A stretch of DNA of 32,000 bases from Methanococcus maripaludis (GCF_002945325.1 NZ_CP026606.1:1500001-1532000); one strand, 5' to 3'; positions 7,426 to 31,602 are shown, counted from the stretch's first letter. Numbers and translations are program-made. Notes: generated from the letters alone by a model not told the origin.

Positions 7426-7446
7426 TTTTACACCCCAAAGAAGAGG

Positions 7447-7472: not shown

Positions 7473-7481
7473 TATTAGTAT

Positions 7482-10400
7482 TTACTGTCCTGCAAAGTTG
7501 CATTCTGAGTCTGAATATGCCCAGTATGCGTAGGTTGGTATAACTTGACTGCCACCATTAAGTTTTATCCATCCACTAGGACTAAATTCAAGTACTTTAG
7601 TAATGGATGGGTATCCTCCAGTGAAGTCACTGCATAACACAGGATCAAGTGATCCACCGTATGTATTTACACCTACAAGGTTCCATCCACAGCAAAGTTG
7701 TATTTCAGGTGGTGTATCTGTAGCTGTTAATGGTACGGTGTATATCGGCATACTTCCTTCGCAGGTACCGATGTATACATAACCTTCAAGTGGTTCGAAT
7801 CCACTTGCTAATTCCCACTGTCCGTCGGTGAATTTCACAAATGAACCGCTTGTAATTCCTGAGTCAGCAACCATTTGTGCTGTATCTACTTTTCCAGGTA
7901 CTGAAAACATTTTCAAGTTTTCAATTTCAATTGAACCTGTACTTTCTGCAGCTTCCGAAATTCCTTTCAGTTCTGCACTGCAATCAACTATTGGGAATCC
8001 ATGTGGGCCAAGTATTGCAGTCTGATTTATTTTAATGCTTATTTCTGTAGTATTGGTAATTATATTACTACTAGATCCAAGGGTAATTATTATCATATGG
8101 TCATTTATTGCACTTTCAGCCATTGTAGCTCCAGTTCCGAAGCTTCCACCGATGATATCAAATCCATCCAATGGGCTTGCAGGATCATAGGAGTCATTAA
8201 TGCTTACTGTGTCATTAAATGTTACTTTTAATGTATTGCATGGTTCGTAGCATGCATTGAGTATTTTTACACATTCTCTATCTACTGTAGTGTTTGTATC
8301 ATTAATTACTGGTATTCCACCATTTTCGATACATATGGCTCTTGTATCAGTCGCTTCCATGTTGTTGCAATCTTCATCGAATGCATAAGCGACAAGACAG
8401 TAGCATCCGTCTTCTAGGATTGTAGTGTCAAACATGTAGCTCCAGAGTCCATCACTACACGTAATTTCATCTGTAATCATGCCTGGAACCCCTTCATCAA
8501 CATACCATAATTCGATAGTGTCGATTACAGGGCAGTTTTCTACAGTTCCTCCAACTTCAATTGTACCGGATTTAACTCCTGAATTTACTGCTGGAGTTAT
8601 TAATGTAATTCCAAAGTTGTTGTCCACATCGATCATGTCTGTATCTGATGCGATTGCGCCTTGACATGGCCAGCCGTATGCTGAAACTCTTATTTCATAG
8701 AGGCCATCCATTGTGCACGTATTAAGATCGATTGTCCATTCCATACCTTCACAGTCACATGTTGTAGGAAGGTATATTACAGATACGCCAGGGAAATTAG
8801 TCCAGTCTCCCATAGGTTCTCCTGTAGGTTCACATATTTTTCTGTATTCAAATTCTAAGTAATCTAAGCACGCGCATTCCGCAGTACCTTCTATTGTAGT
8901 GGTTCCTGCAACTTTAGGTTCAGCTCCAGGTCCTGTAATGTCCACCATTACAAGATTGGAGTCGTATTGTATGCACTCGTATCCTGTTGTTATTGTAGTG
9001 TATGTATTTCCACATGAGTATTCTGCTTCAGCATAAATCTGTGTTGATGCTCCATTCAATATACATGGGTTAAAGCACAGTCCCCACTCCCAGGTACCGT
9101 CGCCAATGTATCTGAAATCTTCAGCAGGTACTTCTCCGAGAAGTCCAAGACTTGCGGAGTATACTTTTACGCTTTCTACTCTTTCATCTACTAAGCATCC
9201 AGTTAGAGTTCCTCTAATAGGTGCTTTATCTCCTGTTACATAGTATACGCAACAGTCAGGGCAGGTTAGATCAATTTCGACAGCGTTATTTACATTAACC
9301 ATTACATTGCTTTCGCTCTGGTCACATGGGCCAGTAACAACTGCTTTTAAGTATAATGGTCCATCTTCAAAGCAGCACGTGTTAAGTGGTGCTTTCCATC
9401 TTCCATCTTCTACATTTACATCAATATCTTCTTTGTATAATGTCCAAGATGTGTTATCTTCTGATACATAGAAGTCTACGTTTGAAACTCCCGCACCGAC
9501 CGCTGTACCGTATACCCAGAAGTTATCGCACACGGTCTGTCCGTCGATTGGTTTTGAGATCGAAACACCTGATGTGTCATCTACATAGACATCCATAACG
9601 TATTCTGCACGTTCAAAGTCTCCGCATTCGTCATTTTCACATGGTTCTACTACTGCTTTTATTTCGTAGTGTCCATTATCAATGCAGTTTACCATGCATG
9701 AAGACCAGGTTACATCCCAGTATGCATAATGGTCCCACCAGTTGAAATTCGGTAAGTTTGGATATAATGGATCTATTCCGTAATCTGTAAAGTCAATGTA
9801 CTGTTCGCTGTTTTTCCAGTTAAGGAATGCGCTGTCCATTGGCAACCAGTTTTCGCTTCCATATTCCCTCCAGTAGAGATCTACATGGTCAGGCAGGCAA
9901 ACGTCGTCAGTATCTGGCCAACACCACCAGCCGCAACAGTCTGCATCTACCCATACGAATCCTCTTATAACTTTACCGTTGTATATTGTGTTTCCTTCGC
10001 AAGGATCAATTATTTCAATGTCAAAATCATTGTATATGCTCGTTCCAATAGGTTCAGATTCAAATTCTCCGCAACCTCCTTCTGCAACACCCCTTATTCT
10101 TACATATCTTCCTTCTTCATCCTGAATATCTTCTGGTGTACACCAGTCAGTTTCCCAGGTTCCTGATTTGAGGCATGCTCCTTCATAAGTCCATGTAATT
10201 GAACTTTCAGTACAGCTTGCATCTTTCCAGCAGTTGTCCCATTCGATATACCATTGGCATCTATCTACCCGTACCATATGTCCAAAGTCGTATTCTAAGT
10301 CTACGTAGTCAGGATAATCTATCCAGCAGGTTGGAACTGAGATATTACCAAATGCAGTAACTGTTCCACTTTGTATGTCGTATACTCTGTAGCAATCATT

Positions 10401-11972
10401 ACCCATCCAGCATTCTTCGTATACGCAGTCTTCAAGTTCAATTGTCAAATTTCTTTCGTTGCAGTATGCAAATTCAACGGTGTCATATCTAAATTCATCG
10501 TAGCATTCGCATTTATCATCAACTACAGCGTATACTTCGTAGCATCCTGAGTCGAAATCACAGAATTTGTTTGTTGTAAAGGTCCAATCAGGCATTGTAG
10601 CAGATGTGGATCCTAAGTATACCATATCGCTTAAATTTTTTTCATTGATGTAATTATCGTGGTCTTCAGGGACTCCACAGATACATTCTGAAACTCCGTC
10701 TCCAAGATCTTCATTTGATGGATATCCGCAGTCTGGACAGAAGTATCCTGTAACTATTCCACCACAGCTACCACATACGATTGGATCCATTTCTGCACCG
10801 CAGTTTGGACAGATATTTTCAGCTAACTCTCGAGGTTCTTCTGCATCGAGTGTTATGATTTCTCCATCGCACACATTGCATGCAGGACAGCAAGCTCCAT
10901 CACAAAGTGTGAAGTTTCCTGTTTTTACTGCATAAAAGTCAATTTTTTGTGCAGCATTGCATGGATCGTTTAATTTACCTGAAAAGGTAATTGGCCCGCA
11001 AAGTGTCATACCACATTCTGGTGAAAGTGGTGCAGGGCATTCTATTTCAAAGCATACCTCTTCCCTTATAATTTCGAGGCATCCTACGTATTCGTCTCCA
11101 ATTTGTACACCATTGTATGTACAGTCATCGGTACAGTCTGCGTAAGGTGTAGCCGTTATTACATAGACTCCTCCGCAGTATAAGTTGTTAAATAATACGT
11201 CAAAAGTGTAGTTGCAGCACATTGCACTTTCGAAGTCTTCTCTATCTACGATGTATGTCATAGTAGGCATACATTCATCTACAGGGCATCTTGGAGTACA
11301 AGTGCCTTCTCCCATATATTCTGCAGTTATTATTATGTAATCAACGCATTCGCAGGATTCATTTAAACATCCTCCGATAACCCCTCCACAGGAAAGTGAT
11401 TCTGGAAGGTCTAAGTTTACAGCAACCCCTTTATCGAAGCATACGTAAACAGGCTCTGAAGGGCAGCCTACCTGTAAATCACATGCATCATAGAGTACTG
11501 TTCTTAATACATAACAGCCATCTGGTTCACAACAGATAGGCCAATCTAAACTCCATTCAGCAGGACAATATCCTTCTAAAGTGCTATCAACACCTGCAAG
11601 GCTCCATCCTTCTCCGTTATCTGCTGCAGGATTACCGCATTCGCAGTAAAGTTCGCAGTCACAGCAGTAAGGGCTTAATTGTTTATAATATACTTTTACG
11701 TAGTCCGCACATCCCAAATCATCATTATAGCATGGTACGATTGTCCCGGTAATTGGAACTTCATCACACCACGTGGATGCGCATTCTGGTGAAGTAATAC
11801 TAACGTTAAAACATCTATCGTCAGTGCAGTTACAGTCTATAATTATGGTACCTGAACCACCGTTACATGTGCAATCACTTAAAGTGGTAGTATCAGATGC
11901 CATAACACCCCCCATATTTGAGAGAACCATAACAAGTACTAAAAATAGTGCCTGTCCTGATTTTTTATTCAC
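7482..11972 (-). CDS. Giant secreted cysteine-rich multi-Ig-like-domain protein
   Basis: 1496 aa. GTG start preceded by AGGGGTG. Signal peptide MNKKSGQALFLVLVMVLSNMGGVMA. About 110 Cys by hand count. The recurring module ending G.Y.h.A.h.D.C resembles the bacterial Ig (Big_7-like) signature dG.Y.l.a.A.D..GN. Many N-x-S/T sequons. No C-terminal TM segment. Confidence 0.85.
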   Translation of the reverse strand: MNKKSGQALFLVLVMVLSNMGGVMASDTTTLSDCTCNGGSGTIIIDCNCTDDRCFNVSITSPECASTWCDEVPITGTIVPCYNDDLGCADYVKVYYKQLSPYCCDCELYCECGNPAADNGEGWSLAGVDSTLEGYCPAEWSLDWPICCEPDGCYVLRTVLYDACDLQVGCPSEPVYVCFDKGVAVNLDLPESLSCGGVIGGCLNESCECVDYIIITAEYMGEGTCTPRCPVDECMPTMTYIVDREDFESAMCCNYTFDVLFNNLYCGGVYVITATPYADCTDDCTYNGVQIGDEYVGCLEIIREEVCFEIECPAPLSPECGMTLCGPITFSGKLNDPCNAAQKIDFYAVKTGNFTLCDGACCPACNVCDGEIITLDAEEPRELAENICPNCGAEMDPIVCGSCGGIVTGYFCPDCGYPSNEDLGDGVSECICGVPEDHDNYINEKNLSDMVYLGSTSATMPDWTFTTNKFCDFDSGCYEVYAVVDDKCECYDEFRYDTVEFAYCNERNLTIELEDCVYEECWMGNDCYRVYDIQSGTVTAFGNISVPTCWIDYPDYVDLEYDFGHMVRVDRCQWYIEWDNCWKDASCTESSITWTYEGACLKSGTWETDWCTPEDIQDEEGRYVRIRGVAEGGCGEFESEPIGTSIYNDFDIEIIDPCEGNTIYNGKVIRGFVWVDADCCGWWCWPDTDDVCLPDHVDLYWREYGSENWLPMDSAFLNWKNSEQYIDFTDYGIDPLYPNLPNFNWWDHYAYWDVTWSSCMVNCIDNGHYEIKAVVEPCENDECGDFERAEYVMDVYVDDTSGVSISKPIDGQTVCDNFWVYGTAVGAGVSNVDFYVSEDNTSWTLYKEDIDVNVEDGRWKAPLNTCCFEDGPLYLKAVVTGPCDQSESNVMVNVNNAVEIDLTCPDCCVYYVTGDKAPIRGTLTGCLVDERVESVKVYSASLGLLGEVPAEDFRYIGDGTWEWGLCFNPCILNGASTQIYAEAEYSCGNTYTTITTGYECIQYDSNLVMVDITGPGAEPKVAGTTTIEGTAECACLDYLEFEYRKICEPTGEPMGDWTNFPGVSVIYLPTTCDCEGMEWTIDLNTCTMDGLYEIRVSAYGWPCQGAIASDTDMIDVDNNFGITLITPAVNSGVKSGTIEVGGTVENCPVIDTIELWYVDEGVPGMITDEITCSDGLWSYMFDTTILEDGCYCLVAYAFDEDCNNMEATDTRAICIENGGIPVINDTNTTVDRECVKILNACYEPCNTLKVTFNDTVSINDSYDPASPLDGFDIIGGSFGTGATMAESAINDHMIIITLGSSSNIITNTTEISIKINQTAILGPHGFPIVDCSAELKGISEAAESTGSIEIENLKMFSVPGKVDTAQMVADSGITSGSFVKFTDGQWELASGFEPLEGYVYIGTCEGSMPIYTVPLTATDTPPEIQLCCGWNLVGVNTYGGSLDPVLCSDFTGGYPSITKVLEFSPSGWIKLNGGSQVIPTYAYWAYSDSECNFAGQ

Positions 11973-12598: not shown

Positions 12599-13714
12599 TT
12601 ATTTTTTCTTTAATTTTAAATTAGGCTTTTTTGTAACAAGCGGGATTCTTTCAACTTCTAATTTATCAGATGTTGGGTAATATTCTGATATATACGCACT
12701 GAATTTAAAATCAAAGTTATTTTCTTTCAACTGATCTATTAAATCTTCTAAAATTTCTGGATTTAATAATATCCTATCATTTAAAAGCTCAAATTCTACA
12801 TCATTTTCTTTTAATATCTCAAGTACTTCTGAAACGTTTTCGATATCTTTAAAATTAATAGTTCCTTTTAATAAAAGGCCTTCTTCCGTAATTTCTTCGT
12901 AAGGCTTTGCAACGTTTCTCGCACGATTTATAAGCCGGTTTTTCATCTGAACACTGTCTTTTAATGAAGAAGGGCAGAAATGAATTATCATATTTCCTGT
13001 AAAATTGTCAATCACATATTTTGCAGTTTCAAAACTTCCTGAAATTCTGGATGTTGTATCATCTTTTTCAGAAAATCCTCTATCAATTAAAGCTTGATAG
13101 TTGGTTTCAGAATATTCGAGTTCATTGATATTTAAGAATTTTACGCCGATTTTATCGATTTCAAGGGCTAAATCTAAAATTTCTTTTTCAAAATTTGGAA
13201 TTCCTGGAATTTCAACTCCAACATCTTTAATATATTTTTTACAGAGTTTCAATTTTTTTAAAAAGTCCAATTTATCAAAATTTTCAAAATCATTGAATAG
13301 TTTTGATGAATGAAGCCTGATTTCATCAAGGTTTGCATCTTTTAAAAGCTTTAAATTTTCTTCATTGACAAATTTTGGTGTTGTGTAAAGATGTGCATGG
13401 AAATCCTTTCCAAAGTGTTCTTTCAAAGCTTTTAAATATTCAACAGTTCTTTCAATTCTTAAAAGCGGATTTCCACCTGTTATTCCAACACCTTTACTTC
13501 CGCAAAGATATGCTTCTTCAATCGCTTCTTCAATCGAATTGATTTGTTTTTCATTTGCAAAAATTACATCCTTTTTTTTCCTTTTTTCCGAAAGCGGGCA
13601 GTAGTAACAGGATTCTTCACAGAGTCCTGTAATATATAAAACCAGCTTTTCTCCTTTTATGCAGTATTTACAGCCCAATGCCATATTTTTTTCGTTTAAA
13701 TTTGATAAATCCAT
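12599..13714 (-). CDS. Radical SAM protein, PflA-related (COG2108-like), function unknown
   Basis: 371 aa. CxxxCxxC motif CEESCYYC near the N-terminus, GGNPLL (SAM-binding GGE-like) motif and TIM-barrel-like periodicity. Confidence 0.82.
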   Translation of the reverse strand: MDLSNLNEKNMALGCKYCIKGEKLVLYITGLCEESCYYCPLSEKRKKKDVIFANEKQINSIEEAIEEAYLCGSKGVGITGGNPLLRIERTVEYLKALKEHFGKDFHAHLYTTPKFVNEENLKLLKDANLDEIRLHSSKLFNDFENFDKLDFLKKLKLCKKYIKDVGVEIPGIPNFEKEILDLALEIDKIGVKFLNINELEYSETNYQALIDRGFSEKDDTTSRISGSFETAKYVIDNFTGNMIIHFCPSSLKDSVQMKNRLINRARNVAKPYEEITEEGLLLKGTINFKDIENVSEVLEILKENDVEFELLNDRILLNPEILEDLIDQLKENNFDFKFSAYISEYYPTSDKLEVERIPLVTKKPNLKLKKK

Positions 13715-20583: not shown

Positions 20584-21366
20584 TTAATAACCTTCTTCGG
20601 GAACTATGGTTAAATGGCCGTTTAAGTTGTGTACGTACGTATTTACCCCATATACTTCCATAATGTTTTGTGAATTGATTATCTCTTTTCCGCCTTCAGC
20701 AAAGATTTTTCCGTCTTTTAACATCAAAAATTTGTCCGAATATCTAAGTGCAAGATTTATGTCGTGCATTACAATTATCGAAGTAATATTTTGTGAAACT
20801 GAAACGTCTTTTAGTATTCTCATAACTTCAAGCTGGTTTTTCAGGTCAAGATTATTTGTCGGTTCATCAAGAAGTATTAATTTTGGTTCCTGAACAAGGG
20901 CCCTTCCAATAATTACCTTTTGAAGTTCCCCACCACTTAATTCATTAGTATTTCTAAGGGCATATTTTTCAAGATCAAGAAGTTTTAACACATTTTCAGT
21001 AATTTCAATATCTTTTTTTGAAATTTCCCACTTTATATGTGGTTTTCTTCCCAAAAGCAATGCATCAAATACCGTCATATAATTTCCATTGGACCTCTGC
21101 GGAACGTAACCTACTTTTTTTGCTAGATCAAGTCTATCCATCTTGTTTACGTCGAGATTTTCAACAGTTATGGTTCCTTTTTTTGGAGGTAATATTTTAT
21201 TTATGCATTTTATAAGAGTTGACTTTCCAGCCCCGTTTATTCCGAGAATTGAAACAACTTCTCCTTTTTCTACTTCAAATTTAACGTCTTTTAATATTTC
21301 AGTACTTTTATATTTGAATTCAACTCCCTCTACTGAAACTATCATATTTTCACCCGAACCTATCAT
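20584..21366 (-). CDS. ABC importer ATP-binding protein (FepC/FecE/BtuD-like)
   Basis: Walker [10 protein letters not shown], signature LSGGELQKV, Walker [12 protein letters not shown]-loop MHD. The ATG at 21366 overlaps the permease stop (ATGA). An alternative ATG at 21345 has GGGTGA 4 nt upstream. Confidence 0.9.
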
Positions 21367-22433
21367 TTATACATCTTCGTTAGTAAATAAAGGAACATCG
21401 GCGCCCCTAAAAATGAGGTAAGTATTCCTACAGGCAGAATTATTGGGGAAATTATTGTTCTTGCAATTGTATCTGCTAATAGTACCAAAACTGCACCAAA
21501 AATACTGCAAAGTGGAATTAAGTACCTGTAATCTCCCCCAACAGTTATTCTTATTATGTGTGGGCAGATTAAGCCTACAAATCCAATAATTCCTAAGAAT
21601 GCAACACAAACAGATGTTACAAGGGATGCAACAAGCATTCCTGACAGTCTTATTTTATCCGTGTTAACGCCAAGAGATTTTGCAGTTTCTTCACCGCTTT
21701 CAAGAGCGTTATAGTCCCATCGTTTATGTATAAAGTAAATAAGTGAAACAAATGCTACTAATGCCATAATTTTTACTTCTGGCCATAGCGGTCTTCCAAG
21801 GTCACCAAATGACCAGTAAACCATTGCAGCTAATTGCATATCGTCTGCAAAATACTGTATGAGTGTAGTTGCAGCAGTAAATAGCGAAGATATTGCAACC
21901 CCTGCAAGAACCATTGCTTCAGGACTTAATCCTTTTAATTTGGCTAGGACCAATACTGCACAAACGCCAAGCAGTGATCCTAAAAATGCAAATATCGTTA
22001 TGGAATAAGGATTGTTTATTGCAATATGTCCGGTACTTTCAGCACCGCCGATTCCAAGCGTAATTATTGCAACACATGCTCCAAACATGGCTCCATGAGA
22101 AATTCCCATGGTATATGGGGATGCGAGCGGGTTTCTTAAAACACACTGCATCACTGCACCTGAAACAGATAATCCAATTCCACAGAGTATTGCCGCAAAG
22201 ATTCTTGGAAGTCTGATATTCCATATAACAAGGTTTGAAGAAGCGTCTCCAGAACCTAACAATGAATTTATAATCTGGCTGATTGATAACTGGAAATCTC
22301 CAGTACACAATGCATAAATAGAGATTATTATTAGTGCTATAATCAGTACAAATCCAAATATTAGTTTTTTTAAAGTATATTTTTTGTAAGTATTAACAGA
22401 ATTTTCCACGTTATCCCTGTTTTGGTAATACAC
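21363..22433 (-). CDS. FecCD/BtuC-family ABC importer permease
   Basis: 356 aa and polytopic. NIRLPRI, the [25 protein letters not shown] core and C-terminal GAPMFLYLL are typical of FecCD. GTG start with no visible SD. Confidence 0.9.
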
Positions 22434-22438
22434 TTATC

Positions 22439-22452
22439 AAATAAGTATTATT
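22439..22452 (-). promoter_or_regulatory. Candidate shared cis-element (plus-strand AAATAAGTATTATT), copy upstream of the permease gene
   Basis: Exact 14-mer also present at 23677-23690. A related 11-mer AAATAAGTATT lies at 22462-22472. Confidence 0.3.
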
Positions 22453-22517
22453 TTAACCTATAAATAAGTATTTAATATTATGAAAAAATAAATTTTTTAA
22501 AAAAATAGTATGGGGTA

Positions 22518-23645
22518 TTAGTTGAGGTTTAATTTGGTATATCCTCCAAACTGCCCCTCCATAACTGAATAAACTGGTTTTCCAAGGAATTTTTCATATA
22601 TTTCATCTGCTTTTTCTTCTACATTTATGTCAGAAAACTGTTCTGGGTATATGGTTTTACCAACGAAATAGGCGTTTGCAATTCCTGTACCTTTATTGAA
22701 TGAATACCAGCAGTATGGTGGAACCCCGTAGATATTTCCATTTTTAAATGCGTTCAATCCCCGATATGCAGGGTCATTTAAGTCTTCATTTATTAAGTTT
22801 ATCGAAGCTTCACTAACAAATATATATTCTGGATCCCATTCAAGAACCTGTTCTTTATTTATTGTAATCCCTTCGCTAACGTCGGATACTTCTGATGCTA
22901 CGTTATTGGCATTTAAGAGTTCGAAAGAAGGCCAGTGTGGGTCAGTTCCATCAAGACCGTGAACTCCACAGTATGGCCTTCCTGCAACGTAAACAGTAGG
23001 TTTTTCATCTTCTGGAATATTTTCAGTTCTCGAGGCAAGGTCGTTTTCATATTCATTAATTATTGAAATTAACTCTTCGGTCCTTTCTTCTTTTCCTAAA
23101 ACTTCACCCATTATTCGTAAAGTTTCATAGTATTTTTCGTTTTGAACATCAGTTCCGACAGTAGCCACGTAAACTACAACGACTGGAATTCCTGATTTTG
23201 TTTGAATATTGTCTGCATTTGCAGCACCTGATGTTCCAACGAATATTACATCAGGATTTAATATTGCAATTTCTTCAAAGTTAACAGAATTACCTGAGTT
23301 AACAACTGGTAAATCCATTAATTCAGGATATGCAGCAAGATATGGGAGTTCTAAACCTGAGGGAAAAGTTCCATCAATTTCTTTTGAAGCTTCCCTATAT
23401 TCGATACCTACAACTTTTTCCTGTGACTGGAGATAAACAACCTCCCTTAAGGCACAACTTAATGCAATTATTTTTCCTGGATTTTTTGGAACCTCAACGG
23501 TTCTTCCAGCAGCATCAACAACTGTAATTGTAGTTATTTCTTCATTAGATTCTGTAGTGCCACCTGTGGATTCAGTACAACCGCAGATTGCGACTGTTAA
23601 AATCATCAAAGAAGCAATAATTAAAGTACATATTTTTTTATACAA
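22518..23645 (-). CDS. Class-III (FecB/FhuD/BtuF-type) substrate-binding lipoprotein, paralogue 1 (most divergent)
   Basis: TTG start 4 nt after GGTGG. Signal plus lipobox-like LTVAICGC. GRTVEVPKNPGKII N-lobe motif. The C-lobe ends YPEQFSDINVEEKADEIYEKFLG. Confidence 0.85.
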   Translation of the reverse strand: MYKKICTLIIASLMILTVAICGCTESTGGTTESNEEITTITVVDAAGRTVEVPKNPGKIIALSCALREVVYLQSQEKVVGIEYREASKEIDGTFPSGLELPYLAAYPELMDLPVVNSGNSVNFEEIAILNPDVIFVGTSGAANADNIQTKSGIPVVVVYVATVGTDVQNEKYYETLRIMGEVLGKEERTEELISIINEYENDLASRTENIPEDEKPTVYVAGRPYCGVHGLDGTDPHWPSFELLNANNVASEVSDVSEGITINKEQVLEWDPEYIFVSEASINLINEDLNDPAYRGLNAFKNGNIYGVPPYCWYSFNKGTGIANAYFVGKTIYPEQFSDINVEEKADEIYEKFLGKPVYSVMEGQFGGYTKLNLN

Positions 23646-23676
23646 TATACCACCTGAGTTAAATAATATTTTTTAA

Positions 23677-23690
23677 AAATAAGTATTATT
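23677..23690 (-). promoter_or_regulatory. Candidate shared cis-element (AAATAAGTATTATT), copy upstream of binding-protein paralogue 1
   Basis: Exact 14-mer match to 22439-22452. It lies 32-45 nt upstream of the TTG start at 23645. Confidence 0.3.
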
Positions 23691-23781
23691 AATAGATATA
23701 ATTTTCTATTTTTATTAGAAAATATCATAAAAATTAAAAATAAATATTAATAAAAAATACTACCTAAATCTTGAGGAATAT

Positions 23782-24924
23782 TTACTGATTTGATATGTCT
23801 AATTTTTTAAAACCTTCAAAATTTTCAGCCATTTTATCATAAACGGCTTCACCAACTAAAAATTCATATATTTCATCAGCTTTAGCTTCTGGATCAATAT
23901 CTGAAAATTCTTCGGGGTATAATACGGTACCAATATAATAAGTATTTGCGAGTACAGTTCCGTAGTCCACCATGTATGATTTGTACCTATATATTAAGTA
24001 AACATCACCGTTTTTGAATGCACTGAGTGATTCATAGTATTCTGGGTTTTTTTCATAGTCTTCATTTATCACGGAAGTATATCCTGCAATATCAATAAAG
24101 ATTATATCAGGATTCCATTCTATAAGCTGTTCTTTGTTAATATATACCTGTTTTTTTGCTTCAAGGGATTCAGCAACATTTTTAGCTTTTAAAACTTCAA
24201 ATGGTGCAAATACACTTGATGTACTTTCTATACCATGGGATCCTTTGGCAGCGTTAAGTCCGCCGACATATACTGATGGTTTTTCGCTATCTGAAACATC
24301 TGAAATTCTATCTGATATATCATTTTCAGCATCTGCAAAGAAATCAATTACTGCTTGCGCTCTTTCTTCTTTATTTAACACGTTACCAAGTAGTGTAAGT
24401 GGATCTGCAAGATCTTTATCAGTAAATGATTCAAATTCATCATAATTTAAAACTACGACAGGAATTCCTGTTTTTGTCTGAATATTGTCTGCAACTTCTG
24501 CTGTTGACATTGAAATTATTATAACATCGGGATTCACGTTAACTATATTTTCACAGTTTAATCCATCGACAAATTGAGTACCAATTGTAGGTAAGGTTTT
24601 AAAATAATCAACATTTGCAATGGTGTAAGGTTTAGCCAGGGCATATTGTTTACCTGCACCTGTAATGTCTGCCTGTTCGCAAGATTCAACCCCCACTAAC
24701 ATATCATCTGCCTGAAGATAAGTAACAAGTCTTAGTGCGCCTGGGCCCGAACAAACAATTTTTTCAACATTTTCTGGAACTTCAACAGTTCTTCCAACCA
24801 AGTCTACAATTTCAACGGTTTTTACCGTTTCGCCTGAAGTTTGGGCCGTATTATCGACACAGCCTGAAAAACTGAGTGCAATCATCAGCGACAAAATAAT
24901 GGCCAAAATCCCATTTTTATACAT
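23782..24924 (-). CDS. Class-III substrate-binding lipoprotein, paralogue 2
   Basis: AGGTGA lies 4 nt before the ATG. Lipobox ALSFSGC. VGRTVEVPENVEKIVCSGPGALRL. C-terminus SDIDPEAKADEIYEFLVGEAVYDKMAENFEGFKKLD. Confidence 0.86.
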   Translation of the reverse strand: MYKNGILAIILSLMIALSFSGCVDNTAQTSGETVKTVEIVDLVGRTVEVPENVEKIVCSGPGALRLVTYLQADDMLVGVESCEQADITGAGKQYALAKPYTIANVDYFKTLPTIGTQFVDGLNCENIVNVNPDVIIISMSTAEVADNIQTKTGIPVVVLNYDEFESFTDKDLADPLTLLGNVLNKEERAQAVIDFFADAENDISDRISDVSDSEKPSVYVGGLNAAKGSHGIESTSSVFAPFEVLKAKNVAESLEAKKQVYINKEQLIEWNPDIIFIDIAGYTSVINEDYEKNPEYYESLSAFKNGDVYLIYRYKSYMVDYGTVLANTYYIGTVLYPEEFSDIDPEAKADEIYEFLVGEAVYDKMAENFEGFKKLDISNQ

Positions 24925-25114
24925 TTTTTCACCTGTATCTATTGATATAAATATATAATTTTTTTATTATCTTTTTAAAGATACATCCCTAAGTAATATA
25001 AATACATTAATTAAACTATAAAAAAGTAACTAATATTAATTACACATTAAAACATGCAGAGAATTATAACTGTTTTAAAAAATCAAAATTAAAAAAAGTG
25101 ATTCAAAGGTATAG

Positions 25115-26872
25115 TTATTTATTTGTAGGTATTGCAGGTCTTGAAAAGTCACGGTTTGTAACAACGTTCTCTACATCAATACCATAAAAACGTTTATAAA
25201 ACTCTTTTTGTTCATTTTCTAAGTCGAAAGAGTATATTTCTGGATGAATTGTATTTGCAAGGAACATGAATCCGAGAATCCAGCGGGGGCTGCCAAAATC
25301 CCATCCTGTGGGTACATTACATATGTTACCCATCCGAACGGCTTTATTGTCAATTCCATGTTTTTTACAGTATTGAACGTAGTCTGAAGCTGGTGAGGAT
25401 AGGAATCCTGATATAAACATCATTTCAGGGCTGAGTTTATTTATCTCATTTACCGATATATTAACACCCGGTTTACCTTTGCGGGTAAGGCTTTTGTTAA
25501 CACAAATACCGCCTGCAGCTTCTACAAGATTTGTTTCGAACCGCTCGGCATTCAGGGCAAATAACGGATAACCCATCGAATAATAAACGGTAGGGTATGA
25601 CTTGATGAGTTTACTGCCCTTATTTATTTTATCAACCCGTTCTTGAATAAATGCGATAAGTTCATTACCTTCTTTTTCCCGCCCAGTTCGCATGGCGAGA
25701 TCTTTGATAAGTTCAAGCCATGAATCGATCTGTTGAATACGGTCATGTAATCCTCGAATGAAGTCTTCTTTAATGATATCTCCAAGAATATCTCCAAGCT
25801 CTTCATTATCGCGGATTCCAAGTGTGACTAAAATGGCATGGGCCATTTCAATGGCACGAGTGGTCCGGTATCCTCCAAGCATGCCGTATTCAGTAAACTG
25901 TTCATTATTGATTGGTCCTTTTAGTGGCACCTGCCATCCACAGGGACACTTACCTTCTTCAAGAGATTCTATGGTTCTGCATCCCATGGGCCCATAAAAT
26001 TCCCGTTTGATGATTTCATTCCTGCAAATCGGGCATTTAGTTGTTAAATATTCAGTTCCCGGTGAATTAAACAGGTAGACGTGGTTGAGAATGGAGCGTA
26101 GCTGATCTACAATATTTTCTGATTTATTTATTGTAGGTTCCAATTCTGGTTTTGCTTCCCCAAACGGTACAAAACGCATTACCTGTAAGGGTATATCTTT
26201 CGAAACAGATGCTACTTCCTCTGCGGCTTTTAATATCTCTTCATCACCAGTATTTATGTACATCGCAGAGGTTTCCACGTGTACGCCTGCTTCGTGCAGG
26301 ATACGGATATTTCTAAACACAGGAGCTGCAGACTTTGCACCGCATTCTTTATAACGTGCATTCGATGAACCTTTCAGGCCAATATTAACAAAATCAAGAT
26401 AAGGTATAAGAGATTTTAAGGCTGTTTCAGTGAAATAACCGTTTGTTGAGCATCCAACCCAAAGATTAGCTTTTTTTGCTTCTTTTGCTAGATTTAGAAA
26501 TGTATAATATGATGCAGCAGGATCATTAAGACAAAAAACAATACCGCTACATTCTTCAGTTTTTGCACGGGATATGATATCTGAGGGTGAAGCTTTAGTG
26601 AGAGCGCCAGATAATGCATCAGCATTTGAGGTTAAGGTCTCTGAAATACAGCCCTGACAGTTAAAGTTACATCCAACAGTACTCACCTGTAGGAACTTAT
26701 TTTTTGGTGCAAAGTGGACCATAGGCATTGTTTCAATTGTGATTGGGAGTACTGTAAGATACGAATTAGGAAACCTCTCGATGAGTTTACTGTTTTGATT
26801 TGTATACATATTGCACCGACCGTAATTTCCTTCTGAAATATCACAACCGATTTCACATACTGTACATTTCAT
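25115..26872 (-). CDS. Cytoplasmic radical SAM enzyme fused to a substrate-binding-protein C-lobe homologue
   Basis: 585 aa with no signal peptide. N-terminal Cys cluster C3/C6/C10/C20 (PflA/AmmeMemoRadiSam-like). Radical SAM motif C68-x3-C72-x2-C75 (CNFNCQGC, 26648-26671). CPIC...CPCG motif at aa 280-311. Residues ~395-585 align by eye with the C-lobes of the neighbouring binding proteins. The ATG overlaps the upstream stop (TAATG). Confidence 0.85.
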   Translation of the reverse strand: MKCTVCEIGCDISEGNYGRCNMYTNQNSKLIERFPNSYLTVLPITIETMPMVHFAPKNKFLQVSTVGCNFNCQGCISETLTSNADALSGALTKASPSDIISRAKTEECSGIVFCLNDPAASYYTFLNLAKEAKKANLWVGCSTNGYFTETALKSLIPYLDFVNIGLKGSSNARYKECGAKSAAPVFRNIRILHEAGVHVETSAMYINTGDEEILKAAEEVASVSKDIPLQVMRFVPFGEAKPELEPTINKSENIVDQLRSILNHVYLFNSPGTEYLTTKCPICRNEIIKREFYGPMGCRTIESLEEGKCPCGWQVPLKGPINNEQFTEYGMLGGYRTTRAIEMAHAILVTLGIRDNEELGDILGDIIKEDFIRGLHDRIQQIDSWLELIKDLAMRTGREKEGNELIAFIQERVDKINKGSKLIKSYPTVYYSMGYPLFALNAERFETNLVEAAGGICVNKSLTRKGKPGVNISVNEINKLSPEMMFISGFLSSPASDYVQYCKKHGIDNKAVRMGNICNVPTGWDFGSPRWILGFMFLANTIHPEIYSFDLENEQKEFYKRFYGIDVENVVTNRDFSRPAIPTNK

Positions 26873-27528
26873 TAGATCGCCTCTTGGTCGGTTTTTGAGA
26901 TTATAATCCAGAATCCTTCGTCTCCAAGGATAATTTCGTAAGATGAGATACCTATTTCATCAAGTACATTTTGGAACCGTTCAACATTCTCTTGAGATAT
27001 ATTTTTTCGGTTGAATTCTTTCCAATCCGGGTTTTTGCGTATCATCTCGGCTGAAATTGAATCACGTAATTCTTTGTTGCCAAATCCACCACCAATATAT
27101 GTTTTTCCACCAGATTTGAGAATTCGATAAATTTCTCGAAATGCAGTGGCGACATCTTCCCAGAAGAATACTGAACCTCTGCTAACAATTAAATCTGCAT
27201 AGTTATCCTCGATTGGGATATTGTGTACGTCTCCCTGAACAATTTGGATTCGATCGTTTAGGTTAGCATCTGCAATATTTTTTAATGCTATTTCGTTCAT
27301 ATGTTTGGAAAAGTCCAAAGCCCGTATTGAAAAATCGGACTGTTTTGCTAAAGCAATTGATAGCGCTCCTGGACCACTTCCAATGTCTATACAAGTGCCG
27401 GCGGTTATTCCAAAACGATTGATAATATTTTCTGCGATTATAGGATATATCGGTGCGAATAGTGTTTTTGAAATCTCGTCCATATTCTTAGCACCTTTTT
27501 TGTCGAATTTTTTCTTGTTTTCAGACAT
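26872..27528 (-). CDS. Class I SAM-dependent methyltransferase (Methyltransf_11/25-like)
   Basis: 218 aa. Motif I CIDIGSGPGALS, acidic post-I LDFS, and motif-III-like ILKSGGKTYIGG. GGAGG lies 6 nt before the ATG. Confidence 0.85.
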   Translation of the reverse strand: MSENKKKFDKKGAKNMDEISKTLFAPIYPIIAENIINRFGITAGTCIDIGSGPGALSIALAKQSDFSIRALDFSKHMNEIALKNIADANLNDRIQIVQGDVHNIPIEDNYADLIVSRGSVFFWEDVATAFREIYRILKSGGKTYIGGGFGNKELRDSISAEMIRKNPDWKEFNRKNISQENVERFQNVLDEIGISSYEIILGDEGFWIIISKTDQEAI

Positions 27529-27883
27529 AACGTGCCTCCGATTGATTTTAATATTTCTAAAAAGTTAATATTTTAAAAGATCTGAGAATATTGGTATGAT
27601 TCCCGCAATTGTGACTATTATATAATATCTCTTTAAAATTAAATAATATATAATAGTTACTTTTTTTATAAATTGCAATCTAAATGGATTACTATTGCAT
27701 ATTAATTTTATTTTTGAATTAATGCAACGTTAAAAAAATGTAAATGGGGCGGTATTTTTTTAGTGATCTGTCTTAAAATGATAATCACAGGTTAAAATTT
27801 AAAAATAGTTTTACGAAGAATTGGGCTAACTATGTTGAATTTAAATACTCTTTAAAAAAATTTTAAAAAAGAAAAAAAAGAAA

Positions 27884-29008
27884 TTACTGGTTTGAAAAGT
27901 CTAAATTTTCAAATCCCTCAAACATTTCATTCATTTCAGAATATACTCCTTTTCCTACTAAAAATTCGTATATTTCATCAGCTTTAGCTTCTGGATCAAT
28001 ATCTGAAAATGTTTCAGGGTAAAGAATCGTTCCAATGTAATATGAATCTGCCATTGCAGTGTCAATGTTTGTTGTATAATAGTTAAATGGTAAAATGCCG
28101 TAAACATTTCCATTTTTAAATGCATCGAGCGAATTGTAATAATCGGGATTTTTTTCGTAGTCCTCATACACAATTGAGATTCCTCCTTCATCAATAAAGA
28201 TGAATTCCGGATTCCATTCAATTAATTGCTCTTTACTTGTGAAAATATGTTCATTAGATGCAGTTTTTGCAATATTTTCTGTATTTAATGCTTCAAATGG
28301 CGGGTATAAACCTTCAGTACTGTCGATTCCGTGAATACCTTTGTTACCAATTGCTCCAACATAAATACTTGGTTTATTTTCATCAGGAATTTCAGAAGTT
28401 CTTTTATCTAAATCGTCCTGAATTTCGGTTATAAAAGAAATTACTTTTTCTGCTCTTTCTTCTTTTCCAAGGATTTTTCCAGAAAGTATCAGTGAGTCAA
28501 ATATTGCATCATTTTTGAAGTTTCCAAGTGCACCGTAACTCAATACTACGACAGGAATTCCTGTTTTTTTCTGGAGTTCATCAGCATTACTTGCGTCCAT
28601 GTAAGTTATGAATATTACTTCAGGCATTACATTTAGTACCTTTTCAGGATCCGGTCCAACGTTAATGTCTTGTGGGCCGCCATTTCCAATTACCGTAAGT
28701 TCTGAAAATTCATCATGTGCAAGCCTGTAAGGTCTTCCAATTAAATTTGTATTTTCAAAATTTTCAATTCCAACTAAATATTCAGTTGCGTTTAGATAAG
28801 AAATCAATCTTAAACATCCTGGGCCAGAACAGACGATTTTTTCAACGTCCGCAGGAACTTCAACAGTTCTTCCAACCATATCTATAATTTCGATAGTATC
28901 AGCAACTTCAGAAGTGTTTGATGAGTTATTTTCAACACATCCTGAAAATGCAACAACAATTGACATCATGAGTGCCATTACTATGGATATTATTTTTTTA
29001 TTCAACAT
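27884..29008 (-). CDS. Class-III substrate-binding lipoprotein, paralogue 3
   Basis: The ORF track starts at TTG 29032. However, AGGTGGT immediately precedes ATG 29008 / TTG 29005, which gives a canonical signal M(L)NKKIISIVMALMMSIVVAFSGC. VGRTVEVPADVEKIVCSGPGCLRL. C-terminus SDIDPEAKADEIYEFLVGKGVY. Confidence 0.84.
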   Translation of the reverse strand: MLNKKIISIVMALMMSIVVAFSGCVENNSSNTSEVADTIEIIDMVGRTVEVPADVEKIVCSGPGCLRLISYLNATEYLVGIENFENTNLIGRPYRLAHDEFSELTVIGNGGPQDINVGPDPEKVLNVMPEVIFITYMDASNADELQKKTGIPVVVLSYGALGNFKNDAIFDSLILSGKILGKEERAEKVISFITEIQDDLDKRTSEIPDENKPSIYVGAIGNKGIHGIDSTEGLYPPFEALNTENIAKTASNEHIFTSKEQLIEWNPEFIFIDEGGISIVYEDYEKNPDYYNSLDAFKNGNVYGILPFNYYTTNIDTAMADSYYIGTILYPETFSDIDPEAKADEIYEFLVGKGVYSEMNEMFEGFENLDFSNQ

Positions 29009-29124
29009 ACCACCTGAATTAATATCTTTCAAAAAATGTAGTATTATTGTTACATATATTTTTCGATATAGTATTACTAAAAAATAATAAAATTTAATTA
29101 ATGAATAAAAAAGAAAAAAAGAAA

Positions 29125-30249
29125 TTATTGGCTTGAAAAGTCGATGTTTTCAAATCCACAGTAGCCTTCAGCCATTTTATCGTAAACAGCTTCGCCAACT
29201 AAGAATTCATATATTTCATCAGCTTTTTCTTCTATATCGATATCAGCAAACTGTTCAGGGTATACTATTTTTCCAATATAGTAAGCATCAGCTAATGCAG
29301 TACCGTAGTTTGTAGTGTAGTAGTTGTATGGGAACTGCGTGTAAACGTTTCCATTTTCAAATGCACCAAGGGATTCATAGTATTCCGAACTTTTATCGTA
29401 GTCTTCTTTTATGAGTTCATAGCTTCCGGTATCAATGAATATGATATCAGGATTCCATTCTAAAAGCTGTTCTTTACTTATGAATACTGATTTTTCTGTT
29501 CCTATGGAACTAGCAACGTTATTAGCATTTAATGCAGCAAAAGGAGCGTAGTTACTTGATGTACTGTCAATTCCGTGAGCACCTTTGTTACAGAGTCCTC
29601 CTATGTATACTGAAGGTTTATCTTCGTCTGAAATATTTTCAGTTCTTGTTAAAAGGTCGTTTTCAGCATCTGCAAAGAAATCGATTACTTCTTGAGCTCT
29701 TTCTTCTTTTTGGAAGAGTGATCCAAGTAAATTCAAACAACCAACGAAATTTTCATCATGGAATGACTTAACATCCCCATACTGTAATACTACAACAGGA
29801 ATTCCGTACTGTTCTTGAAGTTCGTCAGCTCTATCTGCATCCATGTATGTAATTAATATAACGTCTGGAGCTGCACTTATAACCTTTTCAGGGTATGGTC
29901 CAACGCCTATTTCTTTTCCACCGCCAAGTCCTGTCATAGGTAGAGTTTGGAAAAAATCCATGTTTGCGAGTTGATATGGCCTTCCAGAGATATTTTCTTG
30001 TTCTATGGATTCAACACCCACAACTTTGTCCTGTGCTTGAAGGTAAGTTACAAGTCTAAGACATCCTGGTCCCGAACACACGATTCTTTGAATATTTGCG
30101 GGAACTTCAACAGTTCTTCCAACCATATCTACAATTTCAACAGTTTTAGCAACTTCGCCTGAAGATTCGGCAGTATTATCAACACAGCCTGAAAAGCTGA
30201 GTGCAATCATCAATGAAATCAAGGCTGATAAAACCCCTATTTTTTTCAA
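29125..30249 (-). CDS. Class-III substrate-binding lipoprotein, paralogue 4
   Basis: AGGTGA lies inside the track ORF, 4 nt before TTG 30249. That start gives MKKIGVLSALISLMIALSFSGC. VGRTVEVPANIQRIVCSGPGCLRL. C-terminus ADIDIEEKADEIYEFLVGEAVYDKMAEGY. Confidence 0.84.
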   Translation of the reverse strand: MKKIGVLSALISLMIALSFSGCVDNTAESSGEVAKTVEIVDMVGRTVEVPANIQRIVCSGPGCLRLVTYLQAQDKVVGVESIEQENISGRPYQLANMDFFQTLPMTGLGGGKEIGVGPYPEKVISAAPDVILITYMDADRADELQEQYGIPVVVLQYGDVKSFHDENFVGCLNLLGSLFQKEERAQEVIDFFADAENDLLTRTENISDEDKPSVYIGGLCNKGAHGIDSTSSNYAPFAALNANNVASSIGTEKSVFISKEQLLEWNPDIIFIDTGSYELIKEDYDKSSEYYESLGAFENGNVYTQFPYNYYTTNYGTALADAYYIGKIVYPEQFADIDIEEKADEIYEFLVGEAVYDKMAEGYCGFENIDFSSQ

Positions 30250-30379
30250 AATTTCACCTGATATTATCAATGTTTTAAAAATATGATATTTATCATACTT
30301 TTAAATTAAATGTAATAATTGATACATAAAATTTTCTATATAATATTAAAAAAATAAGATTCTAAAAAAGATAATAAAT

Positions 30380-31462
30380 TTAATTAATTTTTTTAGCAAC
30401 GATAATAATGTTTGGAAACATTTCTTCCTTAAATTCAGTTAATTCATAAACAGGTTTTGTTTCGAGTACTTCAAACCCTAATTTCTCAAGATATGAAACA
30501 TATTCTTCAAAAGTAAGATCCGTTTCAAAAGTATATCTTATACTTCCCTTTCCAGTGCTGTTAAAGCTGTTAAAGTTCCATTCCATGTTATTTAATGTAT
30601 CAGGCATATTTTTCGTTAATTTTGGAAATGCCTGTTTTGTAATAAATAATCCTCCCGTATTTAGCGAATTGTATACTTTTTTAGCAACTTTTGGATTTTT
30701 TCCGCCAGGGTTGTACGAACTAAAAATTATATCAAAATCTTCTCCGAAATCGTCTTTAAAAAAATTTCCTGCAATTGTATCAACGTTTTTCGCATCGTAT
30801 TTTTCTATGAATTTTTTAGTTTCAATTGTAACGTCGGGTAAATCAAAAACAAAAGCATTTAAATTTTCATTCAGCATACCAAGGCTTATTGCGTAGAGCC
30901 CGTGGCCTCCTGCAACGTCGAGAAGTTTTTTTGCAGATTTAAATTCCGAAAATTTAGAGATATATTCGACAGTTTTTTGAAGTTCCCAACATTTGCAGTC
31001 GTTTGCCATTCTTTTAATTATTTCTGGGAAAAATGCATTTTCCATGACTTCATTTTTGGAACCGTTCATTATTTCAGACAAATTTGCCCATTTATCAATA
31101 TTTTCAAATGAAGCGGAGATTGAAGGGCTTTTTGAATATACTGAATCCATTTTTAAGTAATTATCACTTGCAAATGTGTTGATGTAATGGGTTTCGCCAT
31201 TTTTTGATGCTATTGAAATAATTCCAAGTTCATAGAGTGCTTTTAACATTAATTCAGTTAAAACAGGATCCAAGTCCAAAATCGATGATAAATCTTTGGA
31301 AGTTTTTGAATCAGAAAGGTAATCAAATATTTTTAATTCAATTGCAGTTTTTAGTAAATAAAATTTTTGGGCTCCAAAATAAGTTTCAAGCATTATTTTA
31401 TCAATTTTTTCAGGACTTTCGGCAGGAAGTGGAAATGAATTTTGGTATTTTTTGGCATTCAA
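30380..31462 (-). CDS. Family-2 O-methyltransferase-like SAM methyltransferase (N-terminal dimerisation/winged-helix domain plus Methyltransf_2)
   Basis: LLKTAIELKIFDYL is a dimerisation-domain motif and LLDVAGGHGLYAISL is SAM motif I. The probable start is TTG 31462 (GGGTGA 4 nt upstream), not the track GTG at 31471, which lies inside that SD. Confidence 0.78.
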   Translation of the reverse strand: MNAKKYQNSFPLPAESPEKIDKIMLETYFGAQKFYLLKTAIELKIFDYLSDSKTSKDLSSILDLDPVLTELMLKALYELGIISIASKNGETHYINTFASDNYLKMDSVYSKSPSISASFENIDKWANLSEIMNGSKNEVMENAFFPEIIKRMANDCKCWELQKTVEYISKFSEFKSAKKLLDVAGGHGLYAISLGMLNENLNAFVFDLPDVTIETKKFIEKYDAKNVDTIAGNFFKDDFGEDFDIIFSSYNPGGKNPKVAKKVYNSLNTGGLFITKQAFPKLTKNMPDTLNNMEWNFNSFNSTGKGSIRYTFETDLTFEEYVSYLEKLGFEVLETKPVYELTEFKEEMFPNIIIVAKKIN

Positions 31463-31602
31463 AATAATCACCCGTTTTGAAAATATTTTTTAAAACTAAT
31501 TTAAAACAACTTATATAAATATTCATATTATTTTTATAAAAATCATACTTAACAATATATTTAAATTATTAAATATATGTTTAGTTAAAAAATAAAAAAG
31601 AA

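Follow-up and report, generated by a model that had tools for sequence, protein, structure and literature searches.

In the 32,000-nucleotide stretch of the Methanococcus maripaludis genome considered here (GCF_002945325.1, NZ_CP026606.1:1500001-1532000; hereafter the window, whose numbering is used throughout), two adjacent genes, one encoding a class I S-adenosylmethionine (SAM) methyltransferase, MT1, and the other a protein in which a radical SAM enzyme is joined to half a class III substrate-binding protein (SBP), form a mobile pair that is linked, in both archaea and bacteria, to ATP-binding cassette (ABC) importers of the FecCD type; and, since it lies beside the same type of importer in many strict anaerobes, it probably processes imported cargo inside the cell. 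In M. maripaludis this pair (module B) is joined to a second module (module A), composed of an O-methyltransferase-like gene (OMT), four SBPs, a permease and an ATPase, which is native to Methanococcales. The conserved pair is more interesting than the nine-gene layout in which it is found, which is a recent mosaic.

The nine open reading frames (ORFs), all on the minus strand, fill positions 20584-31471 in the order given below, and ORF calling returned the same genes, coordinates and order as a first-pass annotation of this DNA; some of the true starts are probably a few codons inside these mechanical ORFs, the database proteins having 374 amino acids (aa) for SBP4 and 361 aa for OMT. The best database matches of proteins from the window are M. 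maripaludis entries with 98-100% identity.

30380..31471, minus strand: OMT, family-2 "O-methyltransferase"-like (MJ0086 family); Pfam Dimerisation 4.6e-11 and Methyltransf_2 4.2e-9; module A
29125..30270, minus strand: SBP4, class III substrate-binding lipoprotein of the TM0189 family; Peripla_BP_2 1.9e-18; PDB 2etv, E 8e-107; lipobox-like FSGC
27884..29032, minus strand: SBP3, class III substrate-binding lipoprotein; Peripla_BP_2 2.2e-20
26872..27528, minus strand: MT1, class I SAM methyltransferase, UbiE/Coq5-like (MMP1179, PDB 3dlc); Methyltransf_11 7.7e-22, Ubie_methyltran 3e-11; 3dlc, E 1e-142
25115..26872, minus strand: radical SAM/half class III SBP fusion; Pfam Radical_SAM at residues 64-218 and Peripla_BP_2 at 340-489
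26648..26671, minus strand: radical SAM cluster codons of the fusion, C68-x3-C72-x2-C75 (VGCNFNCQGC), invariant in 72 homologues
25118..25867, minus strand: helical bundle and SBP-derived C-terminal lobe (C-lobe) of the fusion, residues 336-585, from the structural model, Foldseek and hhalign
23782..24924, minus strand: SBP2, class III substrate-binding lipoprotein; Peripla_BP_2 5.1e-20
22518..23645, minus strand: SBP1, class III substrate-binding lipoprotein and the paralogue least like the others; Peripla_BP_2 1.3e-26
21363..22433, minus strand: FecCD/BtuC-type permease; FecCD 6.8e-95
20584..21366, minus strand: ABC ATPase; ABC_tran 1.1e-32

The permease and ATPase genes overlap by 4 nt, and the stop codon of MT1 overlaps the start codon of the fusion (TAATG). 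A FecCD permease, an ABC ATPase and class III receptors together are what defines a type II (BtuCD/FecCD) importer, and transport would be inward, judging by family membership. The domains assigned in the first-pass annotation agree with Pfam and NCBIfam, except that its "rSAM-SBP fusion" contains the C-lobe only, and no whole SBP.

A mobile enzyme pair linked to FecCD-type importers

Homologues of the fusion (45-75% identity) were retrieved from 80 loci, 16 of them bacterial; the archaeal ones belong to Methanomicrobiales, Methanosarcinales, ANME-1, Methanolliviera and Methanothrix, and the bacterial ones to Desulfobacula and other Desulfobacterales, Desulfatiglandales, Spirochaetota and Pelotomaculum. 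A homologue of MT1 lies immediately upstream of the fusion in 78 of the 80, and is present in all of the 38 loci that extend for at least 6 kb on both sides (the long-flank set), among which an SBP, a FecCD permease and an ATPase are found within 8 kb of the pair in 33. In both domains, pair and importer are often one tightly packed array on the same strand, as in the minimal five-gene cassette of M. burtonii (SBP-MT1-fusion-permease-ATPase), while duplicated transporters and extra methyltransferases occur in Desulfobacula, Methanotorris, a metagenome contig and a Methanomicrobiales contig. This association is far beyond chance, and the linkage in 78/80 and 33/38 loci gives good support to the view that pair and importer type are functionally coupled. 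Thus, the idea put forward in the first-pass annotation, that cytoplasmic SAM enzymes are tied to a FecCD importer, is borne out by the recurrence of the pair with SBP, FecCD and ATPase in archaea and bacteria, as well as by the OMT genes inside importer operons described below; that annotation would have been contradicted if the tailoring genes were never syntenic with the transporter in relatives, and the survey of neighborhoods finds them syntenic with importers.

The second protein of the pair is of an unusual construction. In an AlphaFold2 model based on 72 homologues (predicted local distance difference test, pLDDT, 92; predicted template modeling score, pTM, 0.90), residues 1-320 form the radical SAM portion, 336-420 a helical bundle, and 428-582 a single Rossmann-like lobe. 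The radical SAM portion begins with a small β-domain bearing the invariant cysteines C3/C6/C10/C20, continues with a partial triosephosphate isomerase (TIM) barrel that carries C68/C72/C75, also invariant in the 72 homologues, and contains a second knuckle of four cysteines (C280/C283/C309/C311), each at least 90% conserved. Its membership of the radical SAM superfamily is clear from the score of PF04055 (53.4 against a cut-off of 29.5), the CxxxCxxC motif and the partial TIM barrel, whose fold matches by Foldseek are the pyruvate formate-lyase (PFL) activating enzyme (PFL-AE, 3c8f, TM 0.70), QueE and NifB. By sequence, a full-length alignment with AmmeMemoRadiSam (TIGR04337; 2.7e-33) is obtained for residues 1-316, the Cys-rich N-terminus included, but at 115 bits against a cut-off of 220, and this protein differs from that family in the half-SBP added to its C-terminus and in the absence of AMMECR1 and Memo partner genes both from the window and from the recurrent neighbor families. 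The fusion has no Pfam or NCBIfam match to HemN or HemN_C, which separates it from the class C enzymes ChuW and HutW, nor a Pfam match to a B12-binding domain; and as its sequence contains no signal or lipobox, it must be cytoplasmic.

As regards the C-terminal part, Foldseek aligns it with ~190-207 columns of class III SBPs that have ~320 residues (4hn9, YiuA, HpCeuE, MolA), the PDB sequence matches of the fusion cover only the C-terminal ~165-205 residues of the SBP chains, and hhalign places fusion residues 396-570 on positions 183-360 of 375 in a profile of 70 SBPs from the cassettes (probability 99.9%, E 1e-32). Since the alignments are restricted to the C-terminal part of the SBPs, what the enzyme has captured is a C-lobe and not a whole receptor; it lacks the two lobes and backbone helix of a full class III SBP. 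To judge by these alignments, the lobe derives from the very receptor family that is co-encoded in the cassette: E476 of the fusion aligns with Glu265, invariant in the C-lobe of the SBPs and, by analogy with BtuF, a residue that would dock on the permease, and from archaea to bacteria there is little variation in MGYPLFALN, RKGKPGVN and WDFGSPRW, stretches that come from the receptor. When 1.84 billion representative sequences were scanned with residues 321-585, 16 clusters were found at E < 1e-30, all the full-length clusters being of 570-604 aa and the weaker matches being ordinary SBPs, aligned by the C-lobe only; the half-receptor architecture is thus that of a compact and distinct family. 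NCBIfam, Pfam and Rfam hold no curated model for it. In agreement with the statement of the first-pass annotation that no system with this architecture had been described, a literature search on the architecture, MMP1178-1183, MJ0085-0089 and AmmeMemoRadiSam returned no functional description, but only a comparison of the 3dlc structure and a resequencing table, and the locus is not mentioned in the M. voltae pyrite proteomics, the M. maripaludis Mo-source study, or the randomly barcoded transposon sequencing (RB-TnSeq) preprint and its supplement.

Two of the related loci have further particularities. In Desulfobacula toluolica (L081 6210-9085), three genes lie between a FecCD transporter and the MT1-fusion pair: the first encodes a free-standing radical SAM protein of 348 aa, to which the N-terminal half of the fusion is homologous, the second is a 387-aa ORF with no Pfam match, and the third is cytidine-deaminase-like; a weak DUF364 gene comes after the fusion. 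The 387-aa ORF was considered as a split-off receptor lobe and rejected, there being no detectable similarity. In a Methanomicrobiales locus (L086 1-21794), the cassette is flanked by genes for DUF4213/DUF364 with a ModA-like transporter, another transporter of Mod type, a TOBE protein and subunits of formylmethanofuran dehydrogenase, and by mobA; this may be a Mo/W "metal island", or mere coincidence.

A locus assembled from two modules

In relatives of M. maripaludis, the site of this locus is occupied without the pair. The syntenic locus of M. vannielii reads peroxiredoxin-OMT-four SBPs-FecCD-ATPase-GNAT-HycI-Lon, with neither MT1 nor fusion, and that of Methanococcus sp. CF (L093) reads OMT-five SBPs-FecCD-ATPase, its pair, 81% identical, being located ~570 kb away (L092 5391-11285) beside an HNH endonuclease gene, mobA, an FKBP gene and moaA. 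With the fusions of Methanoculleus and Methanogenium, that of M. maripaludis shares 70-75% identity, against 51% with that of Methanotorris, a member of the same order, and MT1 follows the same pattern (68-70% against 48%). The G+C content at third codon positions is 0.31 for MT1 and the fusion, against 0.21-0.26 for the other seven genes. Of these, SBP3 is 64.5% identical to SBPc of M. vannielii and SBP2 64.5% to its SBPb, the permease 74% to the orthologues of M. vannielii and M. jannaschii, the ATPase 84% to the M. vannielii orthologue, and OMT 65% to the syntenic gene of M. vannielii and 55% to MJ0086 of M. jannaschii. The order of the SBPs around the insertion also differs from that of M. 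vannielii. From the syntenic relatives without the pair, the pattern of identities, the third-position composition and the SBP order, it follows that the nine-gene locus is a lineage-specific union of two modules; so the nine genes, which the first-pass annotation had treated as one unit, are not an ancestral one, and the interleaving of tailoring genes among receptors to which it drew attention arose when a module of two genes entered an SBP array that was already in place. The landing of a foreign pair inside a FecCD locus looks non-random, and the only possible scars of insertion around the pair are AT-rich inverted repeats of uncertain meaning.

Nor is the locus likely to be transcribed as a single nine-gene operon, since every intergenic gap has an oligo-T run at its start and a TATA-like box; this arrangement suggests about seven transcription units. 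Two promoter elements are candidates for regulation:

27611..27660, no strand assigned: inverted repeat with 18-nt arms and a 14-nt spacer, covering the TATA-like boxes of the MT1 promoter, found by repeat search; candidate operator
23677..23690, minus strand: AATAATACTTATTT, a 14-mer just downstream of the SBP1 TATA-like box; the same 14 letters recur at 22439-22452, in front of the permease gene and downstream of its TATA-like box

A third copy of the MT1-promoter motif is found at 25026-25042, upstream of SBP2, and the pattern GTRACTAWTATWWWWTA, which was derived from these same sites, has 3 sites only in 32 kb where 0.06 would be expected; the repeat may be an operator or an insertion scar. 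The 14-mer AATAATACTTATTT is itself an inverted repeat (AATAA-N3-TTATT), and related sequences, whose mismatch counts are not significant alone, occur in the promoters of SBP3 and SBP4 and in the orthologous promoters of M. vannielii.

The OMT of module A has a history of its own, being tied to receptors and importer independently of the pair not only in M. vannielii and sp. CF, but also in M. jannaschii, Methanobacterium and Methanomicrobiales. In M. jannaschii (L088 2170-12676), the order is SBP (MJ0085)-OMT-FecCD-180-aa ORF-ATPase, and what immediately precedes it is the mcrII operon with a MinD/ParA-like gene. In Methanobacterium (L089 3969-15050), a MinD/ParA-like gene and an FmdE-like gene (with zinc finger) precede SBP-OMT-OMT-FecCD-ATPase, after which comes another SBP-OMT pair, giving three SBP-OMT pairs around one FecCD/ATPase pair; this joint duplication suggests that each methyltransferase is matched to the ligand of one receptor. 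SBP-OMT-DUF364 triplets of Methanomicrobiales share clusters with module B, and SBP-OMT occurs together with DUF364 in 10 related loci. Almost all named proteins of the OMT family are from methanogens, the Archaeoglobales being represented as well. As a separate observation, nikR is located 5 kb upstream of the MJ0085-MJ0089 operon of M. jannaschii, which hints at a nickel connection.

Receptors, methyltransferases and the likely cargo

The four receptors are related to different degrees, with SBP2, SBP3 and SBP4 sharing 50-59% pairwise identity (SBP3 and SBP4 56%; SBP2 and SBP4 59%) and SBP1 being ~40% identical to the rest. Each has an N-terminal hydrophobic signal ending in a lipobox-like SGC/CGC motif, and two glutamates, E124 and E265 in the numbering of SBP1, are invariant in 70 of 70 cassette SBPs. 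In BtuF, one Glu per lobe docks on the permease, and by this analogy the SBPs would be lipid-anchored Peripla_BP_2 receptors with a conserved docking Glu on each lobe. Their sequences place them in the clade of YiuA, CeuE, MolA and TM0189: the matches of SBP1 in the PDB include 2etv (3.5e-76), MolA (1.7e-20) and YiuA (1e-18), and the best matches listed for SBP1 and SBP4 are TM0189 (up to 1e-107), YiuA, Veillonella parvula FepB, MolA and Campylobacter jejuni CeuE, with no BtuF or haem-receptor chain among them. A search of the 70 cassette SBPs for conserved metal ligands returned neither Cys nor His: apart from the two docking Glu, conservation is for the most part limited to proline, glycine, hydrophobic and aromatic positions, and for this reason the ligand cannot be read from the receptor pocket. 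Strain S2 has two genes, MMP1176 and MMP1177, whose annotations are those of the N- and C-terminal halves of an iron-transport SBP, and which carry low-frequency resequencing variants (PMC8479958); SBP4 is an intact ORF here, and if the split gene of S2 is SBP4, as we assume, the receptor array varies between strains.

The methyltransferases are less easily placed. The structure of MT1 (3dlc) holds SAM, resembles the aromatic C-methyltransferases CouO and Coq5, and has a large substrate cavity like that of CouO (PMC5289526). In NCBIfam, MT1 has weak matches to CbiT, CpaM and ArsM-type models, all far below their cut-offs (29-52 bits against 240-575 for ArsM), and this, together with the different class of the radical SAM enzyme, sets the pair apart from ArsL/ArsS with ArsM. 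The sole NCBIfam match of note for OMT is BchU, a C-20 tetrapyrrole methyltransferase, also far below cut-off (3.9e-8).

The available evidence favors, from sequence and context, a metal chelate as cargo over a corrinoid or tetrapyrrole. This is because the closest characterized receptors bind Fe-catecholate fragments (YiuA), Ni-(His)2 (CeuE) and molybdate (MolA), and because of the enzymes found nearby. Among 115 neighboring ORFs of 20 diverse loci, the only recurrent extras by Pfam are class I methyltransferases (6) and DUF4213/DUF364 (4), with FmdE-like and MinD/ParA-like genes also present; the genome context of DUF364 and FmdE is that of metal transporters (PMC2954201, PMC2954224), the first DUF364 enzyme to be characterized cyclizes a SAM derivative to an azetidine carboxylate, a nicotianamine-like chemistry (PMC12930334), and to this may be added the large cavity of MT1. 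A corrinoid or tetrapyrrole is disfavored by the ranking of the SBP matches, which the fused lobe repeats by fold, and by the missing B12-binding domain, and also because no cob/cbi, haem or F430 genes are among the recurrent families listed for those 115 ORFs, and because an Rfam search at gathering threshold, covering the window and 144 kb from seven bacterial loci, finds neither a cobalamin riboswitch nor any other Rfam family, so that a riboswitch-controlled corrinoid system can be set aside. As for the metal, Fe, Ni, Co and Mo/W are possible, with hints from few loci of Ni (the M. jannaschii context, the similarity to HpCeuE) and of Mo/W (MolA, DUF364, FmdE, and the mod/mobA/moaA neighbors in L086 and L092).

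Compared with known systems, importer operons with cytoplasmic ligand processing have precedents, and it is the enzyme pair and the half-receptor architecture that are new within them. The nearest in logic are the haem operons (chu/hut/hmu), in which a type II importer and a class III receptor stand beside a cytoplasmic radical SAM enzyme, ChuW/HutW, and where ChuW, with SAM methyl transfer, destroys an imported metal chelate without oxygen and frees the metal. The first-pass annotation had invoked ChuW, and the logic of the comparison holds, but not the class of enzyme: ChuW is HemN-like, of class C, and performs both steps in one protein, whereas here a radical SAM enzyme similar to PFL activase and AmmeMemoRadiSam is joined to a receptor lobe and is paired with a separate class I methyltransferase; furthermore, the SBPs are outside the haem-receptor clade, and the hosts include haem-free methanogens. 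The nearest in sequence are the "iron(III)" transporters of the TM0189/MJ0085-MJ0089 type (2etv), with which the locus shares its receptors (~50-60% identical for SBP2-4), its permease and ATPase (73-84% to M. jannaschii and M. vannielii), and an OMT embedded in the operons of M. jannaschii and Methanobacterium, although this family is represented by a structural-genomics structure only, most members are without the MT1 and radical SAM pair, and here there are four receptor paralogues. The YiuABC, CeuE/NiuBDE and MolABC systems contain the characterized receptors closest, by sequence and fold, to SBP1-4 and the fused lobe, but with identities of only 18-25%, and none is known to be associated with cytoplasmic SAM enzymes.

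Elsewhere in the window, 1612-4138 (minus strand) encodes a PhoU and helix-turn-helix regulator, after which come an ABC ATPase and a permease of the BPD_transp_1 family, an oxyanion-type transporter unrelated to the locus and 16 kb from it. Two very large ORFs of 667 and 1496 aa (5422-11972, minus strand) have essentially no Pfam match and a G+C content of ~0.40, whereas the window as a whole has 0.34; they may encode surface proteins that were acquired. A second, unrelated radical SAM gene (371 aa; 12599-13714, minus strand) is found beside mch, where the G+C content of the window is at its lowest (0.24-0.29).

A possible mechanism, its alternatives and its meaning

If these elements are put together by analogy with known systems, methylation and radical chemistry could alter an imported chelate in the cytoplasm and thereby free its metal, a tentative proposal to which we would give somewhat less than an even chance. 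The receptors would deliver a metal-bearing organic chelate to the permease and ATPase, after which the cytoplasmic fusion would bind the chelate on its receptor-derived lobe, facing the radical SAM barrel; hydrogen abstraction by a 5'-deoxyadenosyl radical and methylation by MT1 (and by OMT in module A) would alter or cleave the ligand, and the metal would be released, with the altered ligand no longer able to re-bind it. Such a scheme would be the oxygen-independent counterpart, by means of unrelated enzymes, of the siderophore esterases (Fes for enterobactin) and of haem oxygenase/ChuW. In more general terms, the pair could be a new and horizontally mobile enzyme system of strict anaerobes that takes the cargo of importers, possibly docking via its lobe, and dismantles or neutralizes the chelator by methylation and radicals; this wider statement is the more doubtful of the two.

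Several observations weigh against this proposal. The pair's own subfamily (type A: the Methanoculleus loci L001, L002 and L007, locus L059 and sp. CF) is usually without an adjacent transporter, which is present in every other subfamily of the pair, and the fusion is ~50% identical across domains, against 25-40% for the SBPs, which fits one universal substrate better than a variety of chelators. Enzymes similar to PFL-AE often act on proteins, and the closest radical SAM family, AmmeMemoRadiSam, is itself, to our knowledge, of unknown function. As for regulation, no promoter match to Fur or DtxR operators was found at up to 5 mismatches in the 16 bacterial loci or in the window, the weak matches to their consensus lying inside coding regions only, although archaeal sites may differ; no metal-regulator gene is conserved beside the cassettes; and the motif shared by the SBP and permease promoters is absent upstream of MT1, as it is upstream of OMT. 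The outcome of the operator scan, with that reserve as to archaeal sites, and the much stronger conservation of the enzyme than of the receptors also speak against a classical iron-siderophore system.

Among the alternatives, the near-invariance of the enzyme would suit a salvage of corrinoids or tetrapyrroles, in which imported cobamides or porphyrinoids would be methylated by OMT and MT1 on the macrocycle or the lower ligand and remodeled by the radical SAM enzyme by means of a BtuF-like lobe, since such a substrate is conserved and universal. Class III SBPs include BtuF and the haem receptors, the fused lobe weakly matches BtuF, ShuT and IsdE by fold (E ~1e-6), one UniRef name for SBP4 begins "Corrinoid ABC", and BchU for OMT and CbiT and CpaM for MT1 point in the same direction; but all these methyltransferase matches are generic and far below family cut-offs, the listed chains matched by SBP1 and SBP4 are of siderophore, Ni and Mo type, up to 1e-107, and in the sets searched there was no riboswitch, no cob/cbi, haem or F430 neighbor and no B12-binding domain, for which we regard this explanation as improbable. 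The analogy with cobamide remodeling and the benzimidazole (bza) pathway, made in the first-pass annotation, is left without support on the same points: corrinoid salvage (BtuFCD with CbiZ/CobT) has in common the importer superfamily and cytoplasmic tailoring, and bza (BzaC with BzaD/E, B12-dependent radical SAM enzymes) a family-2 OMT beside radical SAM, but these belong to another radical SAM class, and with bza only the generic family-2 OMT fold is really shared. The cargo could also be inorganic or organometallic, that is, (thio)molybdate, tungstate, a metalloid oxyanion or a metal-sulfide cluster, alkylated after uptake following the logic of ArsL/ArsS with ArsM or of NifB. MolA is among the best PDB matches of SBP1, NifB among the fold matches of the barrel and the ArsM family among the weak matches of MT1, and the contexts of DUF364 and FmdE are Mo/W-linked, and mod/TOBE/mobA/fmd genes stand beside the cassette in L086 and mobA/moaA beside the sp. 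CF pair; against this, Mo-related neighbors occur in 2-3 loci only and are not among the recurrent families, the ArsM scores are all far below cut-off, and a cavity as large as that of MT1 is suggestive of an organic substrate (PMC5289526), so that we hold this possibility to be very unlikely.

The other two alternatives dispense with the processing of an imported ligand. Siderophore clusters commonly combine genes for synthesis and for uptake, and MT1, OMT and the radical SAM enzyme, with DUF364 in relatives, might build or finish a SAM-derived chelator whose metal complex the importer would then retrieve. All the enzymes of the extended clusters use SAM, DUF364, which in 10 related loci is accompanied by SBP-OMT, has the azetidine chemistry mentioned above (PMC12930334), and type-A pairs occur without an adjacent importer; yet DUF364 is absent from the window, neither an exporter nor a scaffold enzyme (nicotianamine synthase, NAS; nonribosomal peptide synthetase, NRPS; NRPS-independent siderophore synthetase, NIS; or opine dehydrogenase) is found in the window or recurs in related loci, and the receptor-derived lobe argues that the enzyme recognizes the finished ligand of the receptor. 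We would place little confidence in this reading, and likewise think it improbable that the adjacency in M. maripaludis is incidental, with the pair acting on an endogenous protein, cofactor or RNA, the half-SBP being a recruited binding domain, and module A alone being concerned with transport. It is true that the pair is mobile, being found elsewhere in sp. CF, beside an HNH endonuclease gene, that the type-A pairs of Methanoculleus have no transporter nearby, that promoters are separate and without a common upstream motif, and that the radical SAM domain is activase-like; but the full importer is present in 33 of 38 long-flank loci, in both domains, the receptor family encoded alongside is specifically the one to which the fused lobe is related, and FecCD loci are so few in a genome of ~1,700 genes that a chance landing in one would be improbable.

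The acquisition of trace metals by anaerobes in sulfidic environments, and their release from strong ligands, is poorly understood, and it matters for methane production and anaerobic digestion. If the release of metal by methylation and radical chemistry is true, it would provide methanogens and sulfate reducers with a general, oxygen-independent way of freeing tightly chelated Fe, Ni, Co and Mo; the host is genetically tractable, and a crystal structure of MT1 (3dlc) is already available. The pair would then represent a new class of uptake-coupled, ligand-processing enzymes, and a function would be given to the OMT-receptor-importer operon of the MJ0085-MJ0089 type that is found across methanogens.

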